From a virus (Duplodnaviria; Caudoviricetes), in the IMG/VR virus record IMGVR_UViG_3300012667_000289, positions 7,794 to 71,793 of that record: 64,000 nucleotides of DNA. One strand, written 5' to 3'. Position 1 is the first letter of the stretch, and each line of letters starts with the position of its first letter. This document shows, in pieces, positions 1 through 36,262 of this stretch. Both the position numbers and the translations under genes were made by a program. Under the pieces are notes generated by a model that worked only from the letters and a program-made list of their open reading frames with translations, had not been told where the DNA came from and did no database searches.

Positions 1-164
1 AATGCTTTCTCAACGCAGGAGAGGGCACTGAAGAGGACGTGGCATTTTGGCGTGCTATTGAGTTGAAGCTGATGCAGCAATAACCCGTAAGATTGAAAGG
101 GCTTTGCAACACAGGCTCTTTCGGTGTTATAATAGAGTTATTGCAACACACACAGGAGTCTAGC

Positions 165-284
165 ATGACCGCACGCAACCGAGAGATCATTGAACTGTTC
201 AACAACGGCGTTTCTCCAGAAGAGATTGCAGCCATAATGGGATTGACTGTTGAAAAAGTTTTGGACATTGTCGAAGCTGCATAA
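165..284 (+). CDS. Small HTH-like protein (39 aa)
   Basis: ATG 165 with CAGGAG RBS at 153-158 and TGTTATAAT promoter; sequence REIIELFNNGVSPEEIAAIMGLTVEKV is HTH-like. Start moved from track position 93. Confidence 0.6.
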   Translation: MTARNREIIELFNNGVSPEEIAAIMGLTVEKVLDIVEAA

Positions 285-327
285 GATTTTGACTGTATAA
301 TACAGTTACTGAAACAAAGGAGCTGAT

Positions 328-522
328 ATGTTTACAGTTGGACAACAGGTGTTTCCAAAGTGGAGTCAACGCTTGCCCGCGTTCACAGTTACACGGGTCG
401 GCGCTGTGACAGTTACAATGGTAGACGAGTGTGGGAATCGCGAGATAATGCACAAGGATGACATTATAGCACGAGACCCCGCTGCACACTACGAGTCGCC
501 TCGCTATGAGGCATTGGGATAA
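328..522 (+). CDS. Hypothetical early protein
   Basis: AAGGAG RBS and TATAAT upstream. Confidence 0.7.
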   Translation: MFTVGQQVFPKWSQRLPAFTVTRVGAVTVTMVDECGNREIMHKDDIIARDPAAHYESPRYEALG

Positions 523-634
523 CCCTTTTAACATTGTGGAGATAAAAAAAAATCTTTGCACAGTGAAAAAAGGCGTTATAATTAAGGCATGCAGAGACAA
601 TAGTGTTGCTGCATAACACACACAGGAGCTAGAG

Positions 635-1072
635 ATGAAAAAATTTACAGTCGCTGGTCACAGCATTTTGGACGGCGTTAAAAAGACCCGTTTTGCAACT
701 ACAATGGATCGCGTCAAAGTGCTTATGCGTAACGGGCACACAGACATCGAGCTGCAGGAGTTGCCCTATGCAATGACTAAAGACGAGATTCGCGCTTTCT
801 TTGGCGAAGAAGCTAAGACAGCAAAACCCAAAGCAGTCAAAGCAGCAGCAGCAGTCGTTGAAGCAGCAGCAGCAGTTGAGACAGAAGAAGATGCAGCGCC
901 CGACACTGTTAAATGGCTGGAGGAAGGCGAACAGCCCGCAGTGGAGCCAGAAGCTATTACTTACGCGACCTTTGAAGAAGCGTTAGCAGCAGTTCCGCTC
1001 CGCAGCGACAAGGGACACTTTATTAAGAAAGAAGTGCGCGAAGCACTTGCACGCGACATGGTAGCAGCTTAA
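635..1072 (+). CDS. Hypothetical early protein (Ala/Glu-rich linker)
   Basis: CAGGAG RBS, TATAAT at 577-582, terminator downstream. Confidence 0.8.
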   Translation: MKKFTVAGHSILDGVKKTRFATTMDRVKVLMRNGHTDIELQELPYAMTKDEIRAFFGEEAKTAKPKAVKAAAAVVEAAAAVETEEDAAPDTVKWLEEGEQPAVEPEAITYATFEEALAAVPLRSDKGHFIKKEVREALARDMVAA

Positions 1073-1083
1073 CACAAAAACAA

Positions 1084-1110
1084 AGCCCTTACAACTGTAA
1101 GGGTCTTTTA
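1084..1110 (+). terminator. Intrinsic terminator
   Basis: gcccttac-aact-gtaagggt stem followed by T-run. Confidence 0.75.
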
Positions 1111-1540
1111 ACCCTACCCTGTGTAGGGTTTCTTTTTGCTGCAAAGTTCACACATCCTGCTATCTTCCGCCGCAATGCTATAACGTGTGGGCCTGCACCT
1201 GCCTACACCTGCATCGTGCGACGAGTATAACAGGGTTCACACGTTAAGATTGAGGAATCTTAGATGTTCCACGTGCGAACTAGTCTAAACTAATACTTTT
1301 GTTTTAAAAAATCCTCGCTAGCTCACACGTTAAGATTGAGGAATCTAAGATGTTCCACGTGCGGCCCTGTATTGTTCACACGTTAAGGAACGGGATCCTA
1401 AGATGTAGAACGTGCGGATCTGCACTGTTCGCACGTGCTAAGAATTGCATTCTATGCAGTCCACGTGCGGCCCTGTTGTGCGCTGTTACACTTTGTTACA
1501 ATTACTTTGCACACACTAGCGCAAATGAGCAAAACGGCGT

Positions 1541-1583
1541 TATAATACATTATGCGCTGCAATAGTGTAGCGCATAACAGGAG
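1541..1583 (+). promoter_or_regulatory. Sigma70-like -10 box, leader hairpin and CAGGAG RBS
   Basis: TATAAT 1541-1546, then ttatgcgctgca-atag-tgtagcgcataa, then caggag; near-identical copy at 2046-2087. Confidence 0.75.
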
Positions 1584-1589
1584 CAACTT

Positions 1590-2000
1590 ATGCAACACGT
1601 AACGCAACAAGACGACAGCTATACACTAGACATTACTGTTAACAAACTGTTTACAGTAGCAGGAGACGGCTTGTGGAGCAACACTGCAAAACAAGTGTTT
1701 GTTACTAACATAACAATGTACATTGGCGCAGTGGAGGAGGACGGCTACTTTGGCGACGGCGACTTGGCAGTGCACACTACAGCAGAAACGTGGAACGAGC
1801 AAGAGCTGGGTTTAATTTACACAGACAAGGCATTTATTGCAGACGTGCGTGCAGAGCTTATTGCAGCAGGCATTGACGCAGAAGTAGCAGCAGACGTTGA
1901 CTACAGCGAGCAAGGAATGCAGGACACAGGGCGTGTTAGCTGCGATGCTTATAAACTTGCAGACTATGTGCGTGCACAGATGCAGACTGTGACAGCATAA
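1590..2000 (+). CDS. Hypothetical acidic early protein, no proline
   Basis: Promoter, RBS and terminator (2006-2040) flank it; coding strand has no TC/CC. Confidence 0.85.
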   Translation: MQHVTQQDDSYTLDITVNKLFTVAGDGLWSNTAKQVFVTNITMYIGAVEEDGYFGDGDLAVHTTAETWNEQELGLIYTDKAFIADVRAELIAAGIDAEVAADVDYSEQGMQDTGRVSCDAYKLADYVRAQMQTVTA

Positions 2001-2093
2001 CATTACAGCGCACAGGGTTATTAACTGTGCGCTGCATTTTGGTGTTATAATACATTATGCGCTGCACAGTGTAGCGCATAACAGGAGCTTAAA

Positions 2094-2423
2094 ATGGAAA
2101 ACATGAAGCGTAGATTTGTTAAACTGTGCTTGTTGCAAGACATAACATACGAAGGCGACACAGAGGCAGAACGTGCTGCGTGGATTGCTAACGTAACAGG
2201 CAGCGTGGGCACAGAGGGCTACGGGCTGCAAGACGACGGCGACGACTACATAACAGCAGAGTTTAGCACAGACGAAGTTGTGTTTGCTAACGTAGAAGTA
2301 TATTGCTACATGGGCAGCGAAAACGAGCAAGAGCGTTTTTACACAAAAGAGTGTGTTGTTGTGCAGGAAAAAGCAACAGGCGACTATTACGCATACGAGA
2401 CAGAAGACTTGTACGAAGTGTAA
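2094..2423 (+). CDS. Hypothetical acidic early protein, no proline
   Basis: Same promoter/hairpin/RBS architecture; terminator 2441-2467. Confidence 0.85.
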   Translation: MENMKRRFVKLCLLQDITYEGDTEAERAAWIANVTGSVGTEGYGLQDDGDDYITAEFSTDEVVFANVEVYCYMGSENEQERFYTKECVVVQEKATGDYYAYETEDLYEV

Positions 2424-2440
2424 TTATAACACATAACACA

Positions 2441-2467
2441 AAAAGCTGCACAGTGTGCAGCTTTTTT
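2441..2467 (+). terminator. Intrinsic terminator (possibly bidirectional)
   Basis: aaaagctgcaca-g-tgtgcagctttttt. Confidence 0.75.
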
Positions 2468-2755
2468 GTGTGCAGCAGGATCGCACGTAACAACGAAGAG
2501 GTTTAGGTGTAAGCACGTGCGAGACCCCGCTACACATTATACCTAACAAACAAGTCAGTCCGCACACCTAAACACAAAAGACCCCGCTGTCGCAGAGGCT
2601 GCGTACCTGCGGTTGCACAGGCTGTGCTCACACTTTAGATATCTAAGACCTCTAAGACCTATAGGTGTGAACACACAGTCTTTACAGGAGTAGACAGTTC
2701 GCACGTGCAACAATCTAAAGCCTTTGCTGCCTACGTGCGGATTTGCAGCGCAAAT

Positions 2756-2780
2756 AAAAAGCGCATCTAGTGCGCTTTTT
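2756..2780 (-). terminator. Intrinsic terminator for 2796-3038 gene
   Basis: aaaaagcgca-tctag-tgcgcttttt, A/T runs on both sides. Confidence 0.7.
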
Positions 2781-2795
2781 GTGTTACAATGCTGT

Positions 2796-3038
2796 TTAAT
2801 GCGCCATTGCGTTATTAATAGCTATTGCTGCAAGCACTTCTGCAGGAGCTTGTGCATACATAAACGCTTGCACTTCTGCTGTTTGTGCAGCGTTAAACTT
2901 TTCAAAGTAGTTGTCTGCAATATAGTCTGCTGTGTCCCCGTCGCCGTGCAGCATTGCTGCTTTGTAAATTGTTACAATGTGCTGCATGTCGTGCGCTGCT
3001 GCTACTTTAAGCATGTTAATTTGCATTTGCAAAAGCAT
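2796..3038 (-). CDS. Hypothetical early protein
   Basis: CAGGAG RBS (complement of 3045-3050), TGTTATAAT at 3086-3094 on minus strand, terminator downstream. Confidence 0.8.
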   Translation of the reverse strand: MLLQMQINMLKVAAAHDMQHIVTIYKAAMLHGDGDTADYIADNYFEKFNAAQTAEVQAFMYAQAPAEVLAAIAINNAMAH

Positions 3039-4568
3039 TTTAAACTCCTGTTTACTGCTGTGCGTTATTGCTGTGCAGTAAGTATATTATAACATCCAAA
3101 ATAGTAAGTTGTGCGTAAGCATTGTAACAAATTGTAACAGCGCAGTTCGCACATACAAACATCTTCCTGCACAACAGTAACACGTGCGAGCTCTTATGTT
3201 AGTGTGCACATACTAACTTGCCCGCACACGCACAAATCTTCCTGCACAGCAGCAGCACGTGCGAGCGTGCATTGCTTTTGTGTTGTGCGTTTTTTGCATG
3301 TGTCTAGTTTAACACCTCTGCAACGCAGTTCGCACGTAGGCAGCACAGGTATTTTGCATCTAACGTGCGGACATAGCACAGTGTAATACTTTAGTGCACA
3401 GTTCGCACGTAGCGGCAAAATAACCAACAGCTCCTAACGTGCGAGACCCCGCTACGGATCACACGTTATGCACAAAACTCTGCTTTAGATGTTTGCAGTG
3501 CACGTGTGGACACAAACTACATTTAAAAAACAGCGTTAGTCACACGTGCGCAAATAAATCCTGTCGCTTAGGAAAACTGCACACGTGCGAGCCGCAGCGC
3601 AATAACTAAGCAGTTAGTGCACAGTTTGCACAGTTCACACGTGCGCAAATAAATCCTGTCGCTTAGGAAAACTGCACACGTGCGAGCTACACACAGCTTT
3701 AAATGTACAAAACGCAAGTTCGCACGTTAGATGTCGTTGATGTAATTTTGTACACGTGCGAACAGCAACAACATTTAACAAAACAGCGCAGTTCGCACAT
3801 TAGATGTCGTTGATGTAATTTTGTGCACGTGTGACAAGCACGTATAACAGCGCACACACAGTTAAGCTATACAAGTGCAGTAGTAGCAGCAGTAATGCGT
3901 GCAGTAGGGTTTTAGTGCGTTACAGTGTAGTTGTAGCAGCAGCGCAAGCGATAAAGTAAGCAGTAGCGTAAGCAGCAGCGTAATTATAACACAGCTCGCA
4001 CGTGCGCAACTAATTCTGCAGCACAAGAAAATACAAAAACGTGTGAGCTGTATGCATATACAGTAATACTAAATGTTTACTGTATAAAAACACAGCTCGC
4101 ATGTGCAAAAATCTTCCTGCACAGCAGCAGCACGTGCGAGCGTGCATTGCTTTTGTGTTGTGCGTTTTTTGCTGCATAAATTTATTATACTGCCGTTCGC
4201 ACGTGTGCACAAGTAGGTTGCAGGTTAAAAACGTGCGGACTTTAACACACTGTATAAAAACACAGTTCGCACGTGCACACTGCTGGTATTTTGCAGCGCA
4301 CGTGCGAACTACAAAAACAAACAAACTATGCAGTTCGCACGTGCAAACGCATTCTAAGCAGCAAAAAACGTGCGAGCTTTAACAGCACACAAGTTCGCAC
4401 GTGCAAACGCATTCTGCAAAGCAGCGCACGTGCGAGCAAGTAAAAACAAAAATAAATTGTAACAGTTGCAAAAATACAACACAAATATATTTAAATATTT
4501 AAAAAATGCGCTATAATACGTGCACTACATAAATTTATGTAGCAACGCAACTAAAGCAAAAGCACAGT

Positions 4569-4874
4569 ATGCAAAACACACAGTTAGTTTATAATTTTTT
4601 GTTGCAAAATAGCAACAAACAGCGCACAGCAGCAAATATTGCAGCGCACACGCAACTTACAACAGTGCAAGTTAGCAGCGCACTACAATGTTTGCAACGC
4701 AAAAATTTAATTGTTGTTGCTAGCAAACAACACAAAAAACAATACACTTATGTTGTAGCAACACAACACGTTGTAGCAACGCAACATGTTGCGCAAATAC
4801 AACAAAAAAATGTTGCAGCAAAGCAACAAAATATTTTACAGCGCATAGCGCAAATGTTTAAGCGTATGTTTTAA
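4569..4874 (+). CDS. Putative winged-HTH protein lacking D/E/G/P/W
   Basis: TATAAT 4512-4517, leader hairpin, terminator 4886-4915; pattern VYNFLLQ..RTAANIAAHTQLTTVQVSSALQCLQRKNLIV resembles wHTH. Confidence 0.75.
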   Translation: MQNTQLVYNFLLQNSNKQRTAANIAAHTQLTTVQVSSALQCLQRKNLIVVASKQHKKQYTYVVATQHVVATQHVAQIQQKNVAAKQQNILQRIAQMFKRMF

Positions 4875-4885
4875 ACAACACAAAG

Positions 4886-4915
4886 TAGCGCACTAAAACA
4901 GTGCGCTATTTTTTT
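4886..4915 (+). terminator. Intrinsic terminator
   Basis: tagcgcact-aaaac-agtgcgcta followed by T-run. Confidence 0.8.
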
Positions 4916-5933
4916 GTGCACATAGCTCGCACGTGCAAACGCATTCTAAGCAGCAGCGCACGTGCGGACCCCGCTGTATAGCTCGCACGTGTTTATACAC
5001 AACGCACGCACTGTGCATGTAGTTACGTGCGAGCTGCACACAAACGCAAACTTAACACACAGTTCACACGTGTTTATGCACAACGCACGCAGCGTGCATG
5101 TAGTTACGTGCGAGCTACGCACAGCTTTAAATTGTACACAACGCAAGTTCGCACGTGCACACTGCTGGTATTTTGCAGCGCACGTGCGGACACAGTAAAT
5201 TGCGCACTAACTGCTTAATAAACAGCACGCAGTTCGCACGTGCAAACGCATTCTAAGCAGCAGCGCACGTGCGAACGCAGCACAAGCAATTAAAAACACA
5301 ACGCACAAAACAAAACAAAAACACATAAAACAAACAGTACACGCAGTTCGCACGTGCAAACGCATTCTAAGCAGCAAAAAACGTGCGGACAAAGTTGCGC
5401 AACAGCAAAATGCTGTTATAATAAACACATAGCACATTAGCAGCAGCTACGCTAACGCAAATTCGCACGTGTTTATACACAACGCACGCAGCGTGCATGT
5501 AGTTACGTGCGAACTGTATACACATACAGTAGTGCGTATTTCGCACGTGCAAACGCTTTCTAAGCAGCAGCAACACGTGCGAGACTGTGCATATATACAG
5601 TAAGCATTTAGTATACGTGTGTTTTTGCTGCATAAATTTATTATACTACCAGTCCGCACGTGCGCAGCGCTGGTATTTTACAAAAAACGTGCGGACGCTC
5701 GCACGTGTTTATGCACAACGCACGCACTGTGCATGTAGTTACGTGCGAGCTGCACATTACTGTATAAAAAACACAGCTCACACGTGTGCAGTGCATAGCT
5801 GCATGTTGCACGTGCGAGCTAATAAAACAAAAAAATAAATTGTAACAGTTGCGCAAAAACAACACAATTGTGCAGTATAATAACTGCACTGCACAAATTT
5901 GTGCAGCAACGCAAAGTAACGCAAAAGTACACA

Positions 5934-6548
5934 ATGCAAAAATTAACAGCAGCGCAAGCGCAAGCAGCAATTTTGTTGCACGCAAACAACAACACAATAA
6001 CAGCAACGCAAGTACAAAACTTGCTTGCAAATGTTAGTGTTACATTTGCACAAATTACATATGTAACGCAAGTGCAGTTAGCAGCAGCACATAAAGCGCA
6101 AAACATTTTAAAAGTAACTACAGCTAATGTTATGCTTTGCAGCAACATTAAAGCGCATACAAGCGTGTACAAGCGCAAAGTACAGCGCAGTGCAGCTAAG
6201 TATGCGCAAAACAGCGCAAGCGCAGTAGCAGCGTTTACAGCGCAGCAAAACTACTTTACGCATACAGCAGTACATAGCATTGTGCACAATAATAAAAACA
6301 TTAACGCAATGTATTTGTATTGTTTTTATAACAATGCAAGCAGCGTGTATATGCACAATAATGCAGTTGTAACAAAACAACATGTTGCAGCATACTGCAC
6401 TAAAAGTGCAGCAGCTACTTTGTTGCAGCAAAACAACACTGTGCATAATGTAACACATAACATTACACATAACGTGCAAGTGCGCACTATAGCATTACAC
6501 AACATAGTTAGTATTAAAGCACGCAAACAGTTGCTAACTGTAGCATAA
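5934..6548 (+). CDS. Hypothetical 204-aa protein lacking D/E/G/P/W
   Basis: TATAAT 5876-5881 and leader hairpin favour ATG 5934 over track start 5868; terminator 6562-6592. Confidence 0.8.
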   Translation: MQKLTAAQAQAAILLHANNNTITATQVQNLLANVSVTFAQITYVTQVQLAAAHKAQNILKVTTANVMLCSNIKAHTSVYKRKVQRSAAKYAQNSASAVAAFTAQQNYFTHTAVHSIVHNNKNINAMYLYCFYNNASSVYMHNNAVVTKQHVAAYCTKSAAATLLQQNNTVHNVTHNITHNVQVRTIALHNIVSIKARKQLLTVA

Positions 6549-6561
6549 AGCACTACACACG

Positions 6562-6592
6562 CAGCGCACTAAAACAGTGCGCTGTTTTTTTT
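6562..6592 (+). terminator. Intrinsic terminator
   Basis: cagcgcact-aaaac-agtgcgctg followed by T-run; same loop as 4886 terminator. Confidence 0.8.
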
Positions 6593-6937
6593 GTGCACAT
6601 AGCTCGCACGTGCAGCAGTGCACAGCAGCATGTATACGTGCGAGCTGTATACACATACAGTAGTGTGCGCAGCACATAGCTCACACGTGCAGCAGCGCAG
6701 AAAATATTTTTGACACGTGGGGGGCATGTATATACATACAGTAATACTATATACTACGCACGCTTGCTTGTTTTTAACACCAGTGTAGTGCAATCACCAG
6801 GGGCCGAGATCTCCAAACCTTCTTATTTTTGCGCGGCAATTTTTTTGGCTACTGTATAGACCGGGGGCTGCTCCCACTGTGAATCTACTGTAAATAAACT
6901 GTGCGCCCCCATGTGGTGCCATTACTGTGGAATTATT

Positions 6938-7111
6938 ATGGAATACTATAGCATCACCGTCTCTAACGACCGAACAGCGGAATACTCACTGTTCTTGCAA
7001 CAAAACTATATCACGGAATACACAGTGGTACCAGCGAGCCGTTTCACTGTGGAATATCGCTTTAAGCGTTATGATCATTTCTCACAGTTCATTTCACGCT
7101 GGGCACTGTAA
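6938..7111 (+). CDS. Small hypothetical protein
   Basis: ORF track (6911 start); ATG 6938 gives a plausible small phage protein. Confidence 0.5.
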   Translation: MEYYSITVSNDRTAEYSLFLQQNYITEYTVVPASRFTVEYRFKRYDHFSQFISRWAL

Positions 7112-7179
7112 CTGGCCGTTGAAACAGATTTCACTGGTTTGAAAATTTTTTTACACAATTTTTTCAAACACACTATAGG

Positions 7180-7419
7180 TCAGGCCACTATGGGAGCACG
7201 TTTGATATAGTTGGGGGCCACTGTGATCTTTTGACCTTCTACAAACGGGGGACGTTTGTGTGCACTCACTGCCTTGACTATCAACAGATCAACCTTACCA
7301 CCTGCTCGAATGTTTTCAATGCGGGCCAACAGTTGTGTATACTGTGGATAGTTTTTAGTGAGATCTAATATGTTGCCCGGGTTTAGGCCGATTGATTCTA
7401 CGAGTTCTTGTATGTTCAT
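7180..7419 (-). CDS. Hypothetical protein
   Basis: ORF track; protein-like composition. Confidence 0.6.
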   Translation of the reverse strand: MNIQELVESIGLNPGNILDLTKNYPQYTQLLARIENIRAGGKVDLLIVKAVSAHKRPPFVEGQKITVAPNYIKRAPIVA

Positions 7420-7437
7420 AATGTTGGTAGTTAATGT

Positions 7438-7827
7438 TTAAATTTCTGGCGCTATGCGCTTCGCGCTGGAGTCAGGCCCTTGACCCGTTCGATTCTTCCA
7501 AAACTCCTTACCATCGGGCTGTAGGGTGGAAGATGCTATCACTGTGTTGCCCAACTCTTGTGCCCAGTCATACATTTTGGTAGCCAGGCCAATTCGACGC
7601 CAACGTTTATCCACCCATGTGTCTTGACTGCTCATGGTTTCTTCGTCGGGGTTTACTTCCAGTGTGGCATAGGCTATTAGCCCATGTTCAGGACTTTGTA
7701 TGTCTATGGTAAGATCAAACTCACCTCTTGACTGTGCGGTCCAGGTTAGTCCCATTGAATCGGTCTGTTTGTGAGTAAAAGGCTCACCTTGTTGTATTTC
7801 GGGTTGTATGATTTCTTGGATTCGCAT
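7438..7827 (-). CDS. GNAT-fold protein, late-expressed
   Basis: WVDKRWRRIGLATKMY resembles GNAT motif A; TATAAATA at 7833-7840 just upstream. Confidence 0.6.
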   Translation of the reverse strand: MRIQEIIQPEIQQGEPFTHKQTDSMGLTWTAQSRGEFDLTIDIQSPEHGLIAYATLEVNPDEETMSSQDTWVDKRWRRIGLATKMYDWAQELGNTVIASSTLQPDGKEFWKNRTGQGPDSSAKRIAPEI

Positions 7828-7832
7828 GTGCA

Positions 7833-7881
7833 TATTTATAGTTGGATTTTGAAATCCATATAGTAGACAAAAATATAAATA
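7833..7881. promoter_or_regulatory. Divergent T4-like late promoters (TATAAATA)
   Basis: Minus-strand TATAAATA 7833-7840 and plus-strand 7874-7881. TAAATA cores also precede many genes, e.g. 24000-24007 and 42574-42581. Confidence 0.75.
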
Positions 7882-7907
7882 ATGTATATTTGAGGCACTT
7901 GATACCC

Positions 7908-9959
7908 ATGAACTTATACAAATCACTATTCGAAGCTCCCATTACCGCAATGGACCCCGAAGATGAACCACAGCGACCTAAACCTACCAAAGCTAAACCT
8001 AAAAATGATCCGTTTGACTTTTTAAATGATCTAGGCGACATTGGGGGCGTTAGCAAGAACGTGCCAAGCGGACCCGTTGATTCACAAGGCGAAACTCCCA
8101 ATCAAGATCGAGGTGCAACAGGCGGTCCCGAAATGCCACGTGCCAGTGGAGACACTACTCGATCACGTATGGCAGGCCGCTCAGCCAGCGATCAGATGCG
8201 TGACATGTTGGGTCGCATTGACATGAATCAGAATGATGAAATAGATGATGCAGAAGCCGCTCGTCGTGCAGGTCTAGGTGGAGCAGAACGTCCAGCACTA
8301 GGTGGAGCAGAACGTCCAGCACTAAACAGACCACCACGCAACGAAATTGATCGAGTTCGCCCGGCAGATGTGCCAATGGTGTTGAACAATCAATTGCGTG
8401 CCGCAGGTCAGCAAATGCCAGAATGGCACACAATCAACAACTTGCCCGGATATATGCAGCGTGCTATCCGCGGTATGGGTCGTCAGATGTTTAGCATGAT
8501 GACTCGCACACCGTTAGAGCAGATCATGACCATTGCTAATGTAGATGGTCAGGGTCCAAACACAGCAGCAGAGATGCGTGCAGTGGCCAATTGGTTAATG
8601 CAAAACGGAGAAGACCTTGGTCCAGTCCGGATCGATTTTGGACGAGCAATTCCCGGATATGAGCCAGAGGTTCGTGAATACTCAGCAATGGGCCTTCGTT
8701 TCCACGTAGTGCGTGATCCAATGGGTCAGTACATTTATGCATACCCAGAACAAGATGCCCGCACACCAGGTGCCGGTGGCGGCAACAATAACCCAAGACT
8801 TAATAGAGAAAGCAGAATGATTAATAATATTAAAACTCCCGTTGCCGAAAGCGTGCAAAAATACCTAGCAGAGTCGCTAGCACTGCACAAAGAACGTGCA
8901 TTACTTGAAAGCGAAGTGCTAGAAGAGTTATCTACTCAATTGTTAAACGAAAGTACACTTAGCAAGTTAATTGGTGATCAGCCTGGCGGTCAGCCAATTG
9001 TTCGATGGATGCACGGTAGATACTTACTAAGTAATACCGCAGAGTGGTATGAGCACCAATTTAGTGACCGTGTATTCTGGACAGAGTTTAAAAATAACCC
9101 GGATCAATTTTTGATTGTTGTTGGTGCTAATGGTACTGCTGGTATTAAGCCTAGTTTAGAATCGTTTAAAAAAGGCGAAGAAAGTGCTGCCAGAAGAAAC
9201 AAAGAATACAATCCATCGAGAGATAATACAATGAAATATCAAATCATTGCGTTCCTTCGAGATCAACAAATTGATCCGGATTTGCTGCGTGCACCCGATG
9301 ACGTAGAGCGTGATGTAGATCCTACAATTATGAAAACTCGCGGAGGCATGGTCAACAAAAGAGACACTAAGGATTTCAATATTTTTGACGGGCTAAGAGA
9401 CCAAATTGGCCAACTGCACACTGTTGTTTTTAGCAAGTCAAGAGCCACTGGAATTAACAAAAGAGACGCTAAGAATTTTACAAAAGGTTATCAAGCAAAG
9501 TCCGGCGTTGTCGGAACACCTGGTGCTATCGAACGTGATAAGATTGCAACTCGCCGCCCTAACGTAGCTCCTGGAGATCAAGGCGATCACCTCGCTAAGT
9601 TTAAAAACAAGATACAGCCAATTATGAAGAAGGTATTGCAGCGTGTTGGCAATATGGCATTGATGGATGTTAGAGAAGAAGCCAGGGATGCTGAACAAGC
9701 AGGCGCTTTCAGTCGTGCGAGACAATGGTTAGATGTAGCTGAAAAAATTAATAAAATCTTAATAGCTATTAACAAGCAAGGTGATATTGATATGGCTAGA
9801 TATCCGTTGAGTAACTTAATCGATAAATCAATTCAAGATTCTGCCGGAGCCCAAGACCTTGGATTGTATCTTCAGATGTTGAACAGTACTCCAGGTACTG
9901 AAAAGTTAAAACCATTCATGAATGCGTTAAGGGCTAACTTGATTAAAGCCGGACAATAA
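7908..9959 (+). CDS. Large hypothetical late protein (possible virion/internal protein)
   Basis: Long ORF behind late promoter; start moved to ATG 7908. Confidence 0.75.
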   Translation: MNLYKSLFEAPITAMDPEDEPQRPKPTKAKPKNDPFDFLNDLGDIGGVSKNVPSGPVDSQGETPNQDRGATGGPEMPRASGDTTRSRMAGRSASDQMRDMLGRIDMNQNDEIDDAEAARRAGLGGAERPALGGAERPALNRPPRNEIDRVRPADVPMVLNNQLRAAGQQMPEWHTINNLPGYMQRAIRGMGRQMFSMMTRTPLEQIMTIANVDGQGPNTAAEMRAVANWLMQNGEDLGPVRIDFGRAIPGYEPEVREYSAMGLRFHVVRDPMGQYIYAYPEQDARTPGAGGGNNNPRLNRESRMINNIKTPVAESVQKYLAESLALHKERALLESEVLEELSTQLLNESTLSKLIGDQPGGQPIVRWMHGRYLLSNTAEWYEHQFSDRVFWTEFKNNPDQFLIVVGANGTAGIKPSLESFKKGEESAARRNKEYNPSRDNTMKYQIIAFLRDQQIDPDLLRAPDDVERDVDPTIMKTRGGMVNKRDTKDFNIFDGLRDQIGQLHTVVFSKSRATGINKRDAKNFTKGYQAKSGVVGTPGAIERDKIATRRPNVAPGDQGDHLAKFKNKIQPIMKKVLQRVGNMALMDVREEARDAEQAGAFSRARQWLDVAEKINKILIAINKQGDIDMARYPLSNLIDKSIQDSAGAQDLGLYLQMLNSTPGTEKLKPFMNALRANLIKAGQ

Positions 9960-32908: not shown

Positions 32909-35900
32909 TTATAGACCGGCCTTGATATCACCAGTATTTTTCAAGCGTAGTGGAATGTAAATGAATTCCACAGCCTTAACTGGCTCAATAGCAATATCCA
33001 TCCATAGTTCGCTGCGATCAATTCTAGCGTTAGTGTTGTTAGACTCGTCACATACAACAATAAAGTCATACAATGCACGTTGTCCTACTAGTTCTAACAT
33101 TAGGCTTTCTGCTGCTGCCTTGATTTCGTTACGAGTGATTCTGTCGTTTGGTTCAAATAAGAACGGACGAGCAAGAATAGTCAACTGTCTACGTAGATAA
33201 ACTACTAAACGAGCAACGTTCATTCTATCCAATGCACTTGCATTTCTAGCGCGAGTATAGTTACCAAAGTTAACTAAACCTACACCAGGGAATGTTGCAA
33301 TTGGGTTAACTTTAACACCTGCTAGAACGTCACGAAGACCTTCATGAAGTGCAACTGTTTTGAATTCACCATTTAGCAAATATCCAACGCTAGTAGCGTT
33401 ATCAACACCACCGCGACGTGTGCCTGCTGGAGCAAACCATTGGTAGCTCTTAGCATCACTGTTGGCAATTGTGCGCATCATCATGTGACTTGCTGGAACA
33501 ACAATACTATTTCCAGTGTTGTCGTTTGTAAAACCACTTGGGTAGAACATTGCCATATATTCATCGCTACTTACTGCACCATCATCACCGTTGTCAAATG
33601 CTAGTGCATTGTTATTGCCCCAGTTTGATAATTCAGTACCAGTAGGTGCTAAACGGAACGGTGTATCACCTAATACAAAAGCAGTTTGTCCACGATCTGC
33701 ATTAAATGCAATCATGTTCTGAATGGCTTCAGGGTATCCAGGTGTAGCAATCAAGTTGAATACTAATGTATCAGTATCGCGAATTGCTTGATTTGTATCA
33801 ATAACTGCCTTAAATGCCGATACAACAAATCTACGTTGTGCGTGACGACCGAAGCTACCTGCACCAGTTTCTTGATTAGGACTTACTGTGATCCAACGAT
33901 CTGCAACATATTCGTTGCCAACAGTATTCATCACTTCGTCGTTATAACGAGTATTTTTACCGTCATTAGCATAGATGTTAATATGATCAACTACATACTT
34001 CTTGACGTTAAATCCGCTACGGCGTAGGTTCCATAGGCGCATACCTTGTGGATATAATGCTGGATCAGGAGCATCTGGGTCTAAATAATTACTTGCTAAC
34101 AATGCTTTGATTGTGCTAGGCTCAGTTGCTTGACCACTGGTTGCCCAACGTGCATCAGCAAATAACCATCCATCAGGAGTAGTTTGATCAGTAGCATCTT
34201 GAGCAATCCACTTTAGTGTAGTTGCATTCCAAACATAGATGCGTTCTCCATATTGCTCAATGTCAGCTGTGCTAATCCAAATATCTCCATCTACTAGAGC
34301 AAAGTCGCCACCGTGTCCGCCAACTTGTTGAGTTGGAGCAAGTGCGCTAACAATAGGACCGTTAGAGTCGCTGTTAGGGAATGCCGTTGCATCTCTGTAG
34401 CCAACCCAAGTAGTGCCATTGTGATACATGACATCAACTTCGTCAACTACTGAACTATACCAAAGTTGGCCGTCAGCCGGATTTGTGTATGGTGCAGAAG
34501 CTTTTGCTTCGTATACCAATGGCTTCCAATTACTTGCACGTAATGTGAATCCGTCAGCTTCGTAATCGCCGGTTGCATACAAGTTTGCAGTACCAGTCTT
34601 AGTGCTCATATTATAAGCAGTAAATCCTAGTGTTGCGATAGTGCCAGTAGTAACATCGACCATCTTGAAGTCTCCGCCTAACTTGTGGCTTAGACTAAAC
34701 GAATTTGTTGTTGCATCATAGCTGGCAACAATATTAGTTCCTGCTGATGCACTAACTGCCGAAACTACATCAACCATAGTGCTTCCACCTGGAATAGTAA
34801 CGCTAAATGCAGTACCAAATGCAGTATCTCCTGCTAAAGTTTCTTTAATTTGGAAAGTTGCATTGGTGTTAGTGCTTAAAGTTCCTGGAGTTCCAGTAAT
34901 AGTTGTGGCTCCAGTTGCAGTGCGACGATATAATTTAAATTCTGCTAATTTAACAGAAGAAGTCGATGCACCAGTTCCGCGATCGTAATTACTGTCAACA
35001 AATAATGTACCAGCAGCAATACTCTTACCGCCCGATTTGTCTAGATCATAGATGGCAGCTTCTGATCCTGCGTAGATCGGAGTAGTAACTGTTCCCCAGC
35101 TTTGTGTAGAACCATTGTAGAATTTAACTAACCAATTGGCACCACTGTTAGGTGTTGTTGTCTTAACATAAACACTACCCGATGCATTGCCATTTGTAGA
35201 ATATTGAGGGAATCGAGTGTGAGTATCAATAGTTAATGCTACACTACCAAATGTGCCCACTGTTAGACCCAACGATGCAATAACTCCAGAACTTACGTCT
35301 GCTAATGTGATTTTACCATCTTCAGCAGCTCCGTCTGATTTTGCACTTGCATCAGCGTAGAGTGCTAATTTGCCATTAACGACTCTTGCACCAACTCCCT
35401 TGTTATACATAACAGTGTTGATGCTGGTTGCAACACCAGCTGCTGATACATCTGTGCCTAATGTAATAATGTTATCATTAATAGATAACTGAACACTTGC
35501 TGTAGATACTGCGTTGAATCCAGTGCTGGCTACAACTGGCCAGCTAGTTTGCCAGCAAGAACTTGCAAATGTCGAAACGCCTGAAGAAAAGTTAGCTTCA
35601 CTATTAGATCCAACTACTACCCAAACGCTGTCGCTGTTTTTAAACCATAGTTGGTTAGTATTTTCACTGGTTACAGTAATAGCGTAGTCACCTTTGGTAC
35701 CAAAACTAGCCTTAGGAGACCATGTGTCTGCGTCTAAGTCAGCAACGGTAGTTTTGTTATCGTTATCGATAACTAATGGGGTTTTATTAACAAATACTTT
35801 GTTAACTTTATCCCACTCACCGACGCCGTATAAGCTATCGTTAGTGTCAACCCAATAAGTGCCACTCATTGGCATACCGGTTGGTGTAGAAGCAGCTGGT

Positions 35901-36262
35901 ACTAATTGTGCTAGATCAACATCTGCACGAGTAATGTATGCTTTAGAGCTAACGCCCAATAAGCTATATGCTGCTTGTAGACCATACTCGTTTAATTCTC
36001 CACCGTGCACTGGATTACCACTAGCATCTGTATAGAATACTGGTGTACCAAATGTGTCGGTTAGATCACGTTGACTTGTAATAGTCCAAACTTTACCTGC
36101 ATTAGCTGCAAGTGTGCCCGGTGCTGTACCGGTGCCGCTTGCATTAGATTTGTCAGCAGCAGATGCTACAAAAATTAAAGGAACTGTTCCTGGGGCAGCG
36201 GGTGTATAGAAGGATTCATCTATTACTGTTACGCTTACGCCTGGTGAATTTAGTGTTGCCAT
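32909..36262 (-). CDS. 18: Tail sheath protein (gp18-like) with large insertion
   Basis: SPGVSVTVIDES N-terminus; WFAPAGTRRG, RMNVARL and FEPND..TR C-terminus. Confidence 0.93.
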   Translation of the reverse strand: MATLNSPGVSVTVIDESFYTPAAPGTVPLIFVASAADKSNASGTGTAPGTLAANAGKVWTITSQRDLTDTFGTPVFYTDASGNPVHGGELNEYGLQAAYSLLGVSSKAYITRADVDLAQLVPAASTPTGMPMSGTYWVDTNDSLYGVGEWDKVNKVFVNKTPLVIDNDNKTTVADLDADTWSPKASFGTKGDYAITVTSENTNQLWFKNSDSVWVVVGSNSEANFSSGVSTFASSCWQTSWPVVASTGFNAVSTASVQLSINDNIITLGTDVSAAGVATSINTVMYNKGVGARVVNGKLALYADASAKSDGAAEDGKITLADVSSGVIASLGLTVGTFGSVALTIDTHTRFPQYSTNGNASGSVYVKTTTPNSGANWLVKFYNGSTQSWGTVTTPIYAGSEAAIYDLDKSGGKSIAAGTLFVDSNYDRGTGASTSSVKLAEFKLYRRTATGATTITGTPGTLSTNTNATFQIKETLAGDTAFGTAFSVTIPGGSTMVDVVSAVSASAGTNIVASYDATTNSFSLSHKLGGDFKMVDVTTGTIATLGFTAYNMSTKTGTANLYATGDYEADGFTLRASNWKPLVYEAKASAPYTNPADGQLWYSSVVDEVDVMYHNGTTWVGYRDATAFPNSDSNGPIVSALAPTQQVGGHGGDFALVDGDIWISTADIEQYGERIYVWNATTLKWIAQDATDQTTPDGWLFADARWATSGQATEPSTIKALLASNYLDPDAPDPALYPQGMRLWNLRRSGFNVKKYVVDHINIYANDGKNTRYNDEVMNTVGNEYVADRWITVSPNQETGAGSFGRHAQRRFVVSAFKAVIDTNQAIRDTDTLVFNLIATPGYPEAIQNMIAFNADRGQTAFVLGDTPFRLAPTGTELSNWGNNNALAFDNGDDGAVSSDEYMAMFYPSGFTNDNTGNSIVVPASHMMMRTIANSDAKSYQWFAPAGTRRGGVDNATSVGYLLNGEFKTVALHEGLRDVLAGVKVNPIATFPGVGLVNFGNYTRARNASALDRMNVARLVVYLRRQLTILARPFLFEPNDRITRNEIKAAAESLMLELVGQRALYDFIVVCDESNNTNARIDRSELWMDIAIEPVKAVEFIYIPLRLKNTGDIKAGL

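Follow-up and report, generated by a model that had tools for sequence, protein, structure and literature searches.

Among the winged helix-turn-helix (wHTH) regulators, the MarR proteins, e.g. ZitR/AdcR, MepR, ST1710 and SlyA, measure ~140–150 aa and dimerize through N- and C-terminal helices, and the PadR-like proteins of subfamily-2 measure ~100–110 aa and are composed of a wHTH with one C-terminal dimerizing helix. In the case of the lambda O protein and ori-lambda, the gene for the initiator itself contains the iterons. A further arrangement is that of the PeSL composite terminator/promoter cassettes of T4-type phages, in which each small ORF of a variable region is enclosed between an early-type promoter and a conserved terminator stem-loop (PMC2839356, PMC4122927). 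In the present study we compare with these systems a 101-aa phage gene and the DNA that surrounds it.

The stretch of DNA analysed, referred to here as the window, has a length of 64 kb and comprises bases 7794–71793 of a 71.8-kb IMG/VR virus record, for which CheckV gives a completeness of ~20%. It encodes a 1117-aa tail sheath (32909–36262), the nearest relatives of which, at 40–45% identity, are found in the jumbo myoviruses Sinorhizobium phage Phosso (469 kb), Agrobacterium phage Atu_ph07 (490 kb) and Pseudomonas phage PA5oct (287 kb), a kinship that agrees with the CheckV value; the virus carrying the 101-aa gene is a jumbo myovirus. A DnaB-like helicase and a Nol-like carbamoyltransferase are also encoded in the window. 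Rfam gave no match over threshold in window positions 1–9000, a tRNA search found none, and blastn/tblastn comparison with 50,697 phage records returned no match for the dinucleotide-depleted island described below, for the 101-aa protein or for the 204-aa protein encoded next to it. In the literature we found no relevant report of a dinucleotide-depleted island in jumbo phages or of repeats in Atu_ph07 or PA5oct.

An earlier note on this DNA had described a basic 101-aa protein devoid of Asp, Glu, Gly, Pro and Trp, with its own promoter and terminator, with repeat elements on both flanks and with a tandem duplication of the peptide VVATQH, and each of these observations was reproduced: the ORF at 4569–4874 encodes a protein of pI 10.9, the promoter and terminator lie at 4490–4517 and 4886–4915, a half-site scan recovered the elements at 4395–4435 and 4927–4967, and the duplicated units occupy 4752–4769 and 4770–4787. 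The features of the locus are as follows.

4395..4435, unstranded: upstream paired element, with TCGCACGTG at 4395 and CACGTGCGA at 4427 (half-site scan)
4465..4480, unstranded: GTTG-N8-CAAC site GTTGCAAAAATACAAC, upstream of the promoter of the 101-aa gene, 104 nt before its ATG
4490..4517, plus strand: sigma-70-like promoter TTTAAA-16-TATAAT, 10/12 matches
4525..4542, plus strand: 18-nt palindrome CTACATAAATTTATGTAG, starting ~7 nt after the -10 box (dG -6.1, z -3.8)
4543..4568, plus strand: conserved leader CAACGCAAC..AAAGCACAGT, with no Shine-Dalgarno sequence
4569..4874, plus strand: gene for the 101-aa winged-helix protein, ATG start (wHTH at residues ~1–65, linker 66–86, C-terminal helix to residue 100)
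4601..4616, unstranded: intragenic GTTG-N8-CAAC, frame 2, aa 11; kept in L012, L013, L016, L020 and L024
4716..4731, unstranded: intragenic GTTG-N8-CAAC, frame 0, aa 50
4752..4827, unstranded: four tandem GTTG-N8-CAAC copies starting at 4752, 4770, 4788 and 4812 (spacing 18, 18 and 24 bp)
4886..4915, plus strand: intrinsic terminator TAGCGCACT-AAAA-CAGTGCGCTA followed by T7 (stem 4886–4908; dG -19.5 kcal/mol, z -5.8)
4927..4967, unstranded: downstream paired element, with TCGCACGTG at 4927 and CACGTGCGG at 4959 (half-site scan)
5848..5863, unstranded: GTTG-N8-CAAC, overlapping the -35 position of the 204-aa gene's promoter, with 12 nt between the site and the TATAAT downstream of it
5876..5906, plus strand: TATAAT (5876–5881) and 5' hairpin CTGCACAAATTTGTGCAG (5889–5906) of the 204-aa gene
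5934..6548, plus strand: 204-aa gene, ATG start, co-conserved with the 101-aa gene; three GTTG-N8-CAAC sites
5975, 6366 and 6422 (starts), unstranded: GTTG-N8-CAAC copies inside the 204-aa gene
6561..6593, plus strand: terminator of the 204-aa gene

The gene lies in an island (~3000–6700) almost without the dinucleotides CC, GG, GA and TC, all four of which are absent throughout 4440–4926. As codons for Asp, Glu, Gly, Pro and Trp require one of these dinucleotides, none of the five residues occurs in the 101-aa protein (in which there are 8 Lys, 4 Arg and 4 His), and the neighbouring 204-aa protein shows the same bias and alphabet; the odd composition is a property of the locus and not an independent signature of the 101-aa protein. 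The absence of GG and GA likewise means that no Shine-Dalgarno sequence is possible in the leaders. The right edge of the island is itself conserved, CATGTATATACATACAGTAAYACTATATACTACGCACGCTTGCTTGTTTTTA..CCAGTGTAGT.CAATCACCAG being common to the window (6716–6800) and the related locus L010 (11430–11520), although the arrays of the two differ.

The 101-aa protein has ~17 homologues with 42–93% identity. Ten of these (51–92% identity) came from a search of 5.8 billion proteins, and seven more distant ones of ~100 aa from a profile search in which 1.84 billion cluster representatives were covered; the ten and the seven have the composition of the 101-aa protein in common, the same five residues being absent or nearly so in the seven. 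That profile search also gave weak matches to wHTH proteins of normal composition. A family-profile scan of IMG/VR found no relatives beyond the window's own record, and a metagenome scan contributed two additional short loci. We compared 13 gene-bearing loci, namely the window, L010–L012, L015–L018 and L020–L024. On fetched contigs, dN/dS for the gene was 0.16 against the L015 orthologue and 0.19 against that of L010, and third codon positions hold 13/19 and 24/42 of the differences respectively. Residues ~17–47, which include the recognition helix, are near-invariant in the family and the C-terminal half drifts. Across lineages near synonymous saturation (pS up to ~0.7) the family stays without Asp, Glu, Gly, Pro and Trp, and the winged-helix fold can apparently be maintained under a hard nucleotide-level constraint, in what is a natural reduced-alphabet protein of 15 amino-acid types.

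These data bear directly on the reading in which 4569–4874 is non-coding and stayed open by chance, in an island poor in stop codons and of odd composition. Frames do stay open longer here, since TGA cannot form without GA, and in relatives long ORFs are called on the antisense strand of the island (420 aa at L022:2717–3979 and 187 aa at L012:7165–7728, both on the minus strand), which are probably artefacts of this scarcity of stop codons. A chance frame is, however, at odds with the low dN/dS values, with a family kept to ~42% identity with a near-invariant HTH, with a conserved promoter, leader and terminator and with a recognizable predicted fold, and for 4569–4874 we regard this reading as effectively refuted, its remaining probability being negligible. 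The ORF is an expressed gene under selection; it encodes a MarR-like, DNA-binding winged-helix protein that is small and very basic, and we are highly confident that it is a real wHTH gene.

The fold assignment comes from convergent lines of evidence. In Pfam the protein gave many sub-threshold but convergent wHTH matches over residues 7–65 and none over a gathering threshold; MarR_2 (PF12802) scored 18.2 bits (cutoff 27), TrmB (PF01978) scored 15.9 bits (cutoff 25.6), and neither the MarR models (PF01047/PF12802) nor TrmB can formally claim the protein. Across the family, TrmB was matched by 17/19 members (E<0.01, best 3.9e-7) and MarR_2 by 14/19 (E<0.01, best 6.9e-6). PHROG 2030, annotated 'transcriptional regulator', was matched with an E value of 1.8e-4, and in a profile search of PDB sequences the leading matches were all chains of MarR type (ZitR, TM0816 and MepR, E ~0.002), with matches that span the wHTH part alone. 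Structure prediction, which the earlier note had proposed as a check, gave a wHTH topology with moderate confidence. AlphaFold2 performed poorly with the single sequence (pLDDT 51), and the final model, built from an alignment of 19 sequences, has a mean pLDDT of 58.7, with values of ~66–72 over residues 1–50. It comprises helix 2–13, strand 19–20, helices 21–28 and 32–44, strands 48–53 and 59–64 and helix 70–100, i.e. the H-b-H-H-b-b order of the wHTH superfamily with helix 3 as the recognition helix, followed by a long C-terminal helix; residues 66–86 form a low-confidence linker that AlphaFold2 did not place. The top Foldseek matches were all MarR-family proteins, some of them DNA-bound, or isolated winged-helix domains, the latter fitting the model at an rmsd of 1.4–2.0 Å over 64–65 residues. 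As far as computation goes, the protein is predicted to be a winged helix and not a canonical MarR protein.

The earlier note had gone further and suggested that this wHTH protein is the cognate binder of the repeat, i.e. that it binds the flanking TCGCACGTG..CACGTGCGA pairs sequence-specifically. The setting invites such a reading, as the gene lies within the array with an element directly on each side, the wHTH protein is basic and L015, the closest array-bearing relative, also has the gene. Co-occurrence in relatives, a check named in the same note, nevertheless speaks against it. CACGTG arrays are confined to the window and L015 among the 13 gene-bearing loci, the other 11 having no arm-like site; ten of these (L022, L023, L010/L011, L020/L021, L012, L016, L017 and L024) contain no CACGTG up to 6 kb on either side, and L018 has a single CACGTG. 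L022 is particularly informative. Its protein is 93% identical with that of the window, its helix-turn-helix differs at Q29K alone and its recognition helix is identical, and on either side of its gene stand elements that agree with those of the window in length (41–42 nt) and position, one of which has a spacer almost identical with the window's, CACACTGCTGGT(TA)ATTTTGCAGC, yet the arms are TCCCAA..TTGGGA instead of TCGCACGTG..CACGTGCGA. The recognition helix consequently does not co-vary with the arm sequence, and arms that are swapped wholesale while it stays unchanged are not operators of the 101-aa protein. Arms also change by lineage, with CGCACGTG in the window and L015, CCCCAC-type arms in L012 and L018 and CGGGGAC/GTCCCCG in L010, and in staying mutually complementary they have the character of stems, or of sites for factors particular to a lineage, and not that of operators of a conserved protein.

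The gene is thus uncoupled from the CACGTG arms, and of the earlier proposal the wHTH part is upheld (by Pfam, the PDB profile search and AlphaFold/Foldseek) and the cognate-binder part is not. We consider it very unlikely that the protein is the sequence-specific reader of the flanking pairs, and hold with high confidence that it does not read the CACGTG arms; the flanking elements are context and not a likely target. For the paired elements themselves the sequence comparison makes a stem-loop, or a reader that differs between lineages, more likely than an operator for a conserved protein. Folded as RNA, the element at 4395–4435 forms a 12-bp stem (dG -23.9). Comparison of elements from the window (4262–4314 and 5144–5196) and L022 (2072–2126, 2799–2852 and 2908–2962) shows that the length of ~41–42 nt, the position and even the spacer are kept between lineages when the arms are exchanged, and this swapping at constant geometry argues that the array elements function either as stem-loops or as binding sites for factors peculiar to each lineage.

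Two further observations concern the array. A second repeat type, CTGTAyAyrCATACAGTA, occurs with a 32-nt periodicity in L010 (7909–8051 and 9320–9453), as scattered copies in the window (4048–4068, 5513–5534 and 6644–6665) and, in L022, in tandem beyond the terminator of the wHTH gene. In addition, the window contains further TATAAT/TATACT boxes at 4170–4200, 5410–5460 and 5626–5650, which are followed by no ORF and point into the runs of paired elements, so that the array may be transcribed as non-coding RNA.

A different sequence accompanies the gene much more faithfully. The motif GTTG-N8-CAAC, with the dyad-symmetric extended consensus T-GTTG-Y-N6-R-CAAC-A and exemplified by the 18-bp sequence TGTTGCGCAAATACAACA, has 11 copies in the 71.8-kb record; every one of them falls between 4465 and 6437, and the motif is absent from the rest of the 64-kb window and from the 7.8 kb upstream of the window. 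Dinucleotide-preserving shuffles predict 0.34 copies in the island as against the 11 observed, and 0/300 shuffles contained as many; GTTG and CAAC at spacings of N6, N7, N9 or N10 do not occur in the island at all. Six copies lie inside the 101-aa gene (4601, 4716, 4752, 4770, 4788 and 4812), and the four tandem ones encode residues 62–87, overlapping the linker (66–86); the VVATQH duplication is the product of two adjacent copies of the 18-bp motif unit (4752 and 4770). The motif is present at homologous positions in 13/13 loci, down to ~42% protein identity, although orthologous sites share ancestry and counts across loci therefore overstate independence. The upstream position (4465–4480) is also occupied in L010, L012/L013, L017, L018 and L023 and, with one mismatch, in L015 and L022, and L016 has lost the upstream copy and retains one intragenic copy. 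The motif is thus exclusive to the two-gene module and conserved with it.

The motif is found in non-coding DNA as well as in coding sequence, where its copies occupy two different reading frames. Where it is read in frame as the hexapeptide V-(G..)-x-x-Q-(C..), GTT and CAA are used in 27/27 cases, whereas in the same genes as background Val before G is encoded by GTT and GTA at 19:22 and Gln before C by CAA and CAG at 35:49, which indicates that the synonymous positions are fixed by a nucleic-acid motif. This codon evidence, together with the frame-2 and non-coding copies, led us to reject a VxxxQH peptide motif as the source of the DNA motif. An RNA hairpin appears unlikely as well, as consistent pairing is limited to 4 bp, C and A are frequent at positions 4 and 11, and the two decayed copies are altered on one side only. 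The 101-aa gene carries a second, overlapping code, in which a 16-bp dyad fixes synonymous positions and generates a peptide repeat, and is a clear case of putative regulatory DNA written through coding sequence. The near-invariant recognition helix of the family parallels the invariant motif, and GTTG-N8-CAAC is a better candidate target of the 101-aa protein than the CACGTG pairs, and its most likely one.

The other candidate for an operator is the 18-bp palindrome CTACATAAATTTATGTAG at the transcription start, through which the protein would exert classical autorepression at +1. A perfect 9+9 palindrome follows directly after the -10 box in both the 101-aa and the 204-aa genes, and its position is kept in 14 aligned leaders from 10 loci, in which the TATAAT is invariant. 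Against an operator stands the manner in which the palindrome varies. The 14 leaders contain six variants in which pairing is retained (96% of cells paired), with compensatory changes at three pairs; 0/500 shuffles paired as well and slid controls collapse. Within a single genome the variant of the 101-aa gene is not that of its neighbour (CTACAT.. and CTGCAC.. in the window, CTGTAT.. and CTGCAC.. in L022), proteins that are 92–93% identical are accompanied by differing variants, and in L016 the sequence measures 17 nt, the central 5 nt of which are not palindromic and would form a loop. Compensatory changes and variants that differ within a genome point to a 5' RNA stem-loop, not an operator; an operator here is distinctly unlikely in our view, and the sequence at 4525–4542 is most likely a 5'-terminal RNA stem-loop. 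Such 5' hairpin leaders were observed at window 4525–4542 and 5889–5906 and in L010, L012, L013, L015–L018, L020 and L024.

The leaders of both genes end in ..AAAGYACAnn-ATG-CAA. The same terminator module is found 3' of the 204-aa gene and of the orthologues, and 29 nt are identical behind the two genes (4909–4937 and 6586–6614). The 101-aa gene is thus a monocistronic cassette made up of a TATAAT promoter, a 5' stem-loop, a leader devoid of a Shine-Dalgarno sequence, the coding sequence and an intrinsic terminator. For the neighbouring gene, the listed 226-aa ORF from the TTG at 5868 (5868–6548) begins inside the conserved leader, and the real start is the ATG at 5934. This gene follows the wHTH gene in L010, L013, L018, L020 and L022; its 204-aa product has no relative in Pfam, PHROG or the phage database, and the ESM Atlas gave only sub-0.85 leads.

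We propose that the 101-aa protein would bind TGTTGY-N6-RCAACA, probably as a dimer held together by the C-terminal helix, and would thereby autoregulate the two-gene module. The site upstream of its own sigma-70-like promoter would serve autoregulation of the 101-aa gene, and the site over the missing -35 of the 204-aa promoter would allow either activation or repression; the intragenic clusters could add co-operative occupancy, or could act in an iteron-like manner as in lambda O/ori. The link between protein and motif is inferred from co-location and conservation, and we judge the explanation as a whole, i.e. a wHTH gene whose product binds GTTG-N8-CAAC and autoregulates the module, to be moderately probable on this sequence evidence.

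The motif could also serve another factor, be it the 204-aa protein, a protein of the host or one encoded in the phage genome outside the recovered 20%, or could act in RNA, and the winged helix could have some other role, as a binder of RNA, as a binder of the hairpin or cruciform of the paired elements whatever their arms, or as a protein adaptor. Winged-helix domains are found to bind RNA, Z-DNA and proteins, the small domains that fit the model best include the Z-alpha domain of PKZ and the RPC6 winged helix, the link between motif and protein is correlative, and the 204-aa partner belongs to no known family. On the other hand, the sequence and profile matches are overwhelmingly to DNA-binding transcription regulators, and a dyad-symmetric site of 16–18 bp at the gene's own promoter is a textbook MarR-like arrangement. 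In Z-alpha proteins in particular, helix 3 carries conserved Tyr/Asn and the wing conserved Pro/Trp, and the latter two are impossible here, there being no Pro or Trp in the protein; Pfam z-alpha was touched by 1/19 family members (E 0.0048) and the PKZ match is that of a generic winged helix. We regard these other roles of the winged helix as rather unlikely, and retain binding of GTTG-N8-CAAC by the 101-aa protein as the preferred reading.

How does this locus compare with the described systems? MarR regulators (ZitR/AdcR, MepR, ST1710 and SlyA) have the same order of wHTH elements and provide the best profile and structure matches, and the 16–18-bp dyad at the gene's own promoter, as a candidate target, would be a MarR-like trait. 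Unlike MarR proteins, however, the 101-aa protein has one helix before the HTH and a single long helix after the wing in place of the N- and C-terminal helical dimerization domain, falls below the Pfam thresholds, is devoid of Asp, Glu, Gly, Pro and Trp, and has candidate sites inside its coding sequence as well. In size and layout it matches the PadR-like subfamily-2 proteins, and the Foldseek matches include the 98-residue Listeria transcription factor 6abt, which we take to be a member of the PadR-like group; nevertheless, Pfam PadR was touched by only 1/19 family members (E 0.0099), so that homology beyond the HTH clan is unsupported. As in the PeSL cassettes of T4-type phages (PMC2839356, PMC4122927), small ORFs lie between an early-type promoter and a terminator stem-loop that is conserved, and modules are repeated near-identically (29 nt). 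The 5' RNA hairpin, the leader devoid of a Shine-Dalgarno sequence, the GTTG-N8-CAAC motif and the dinucleotide ban set the present cassettes apart from PeSL, and the phage itself is closer to jumbo phages of the Atu_ph07/PA5oct type than to T4.

The comparison with lambda O leads to a reading of the GTTG-N8-CAAC copies as iterons, with the 101-aa protein as an organizer that would bind tandem sites in its own and its neighbour's gene. Were this analogy to hold, the resulting nucleoprotein complex would be, for example, a replication origin, a partition/anchoring site or a silencing patch, and would be located in the leading island of a jumbo phage, from which the dinucleotides have been purged. 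We consider this unlikely. Unlike lambda O, the protein has no sequence relation to Phage_rep_O, with no match to that Pfam family, and measures only 101 aa; there is no clear AT-rich unwinding element, GC skew shows no origin signal or inflection at the site of the gene, and sites occur in promoters and in the neighbouring gene as well. The likeness to lambda O is one of site arrangement only, in that the coding sequence for a poorly structured linker, following an N-terminal winged helix, contains four tandem dyad sites.
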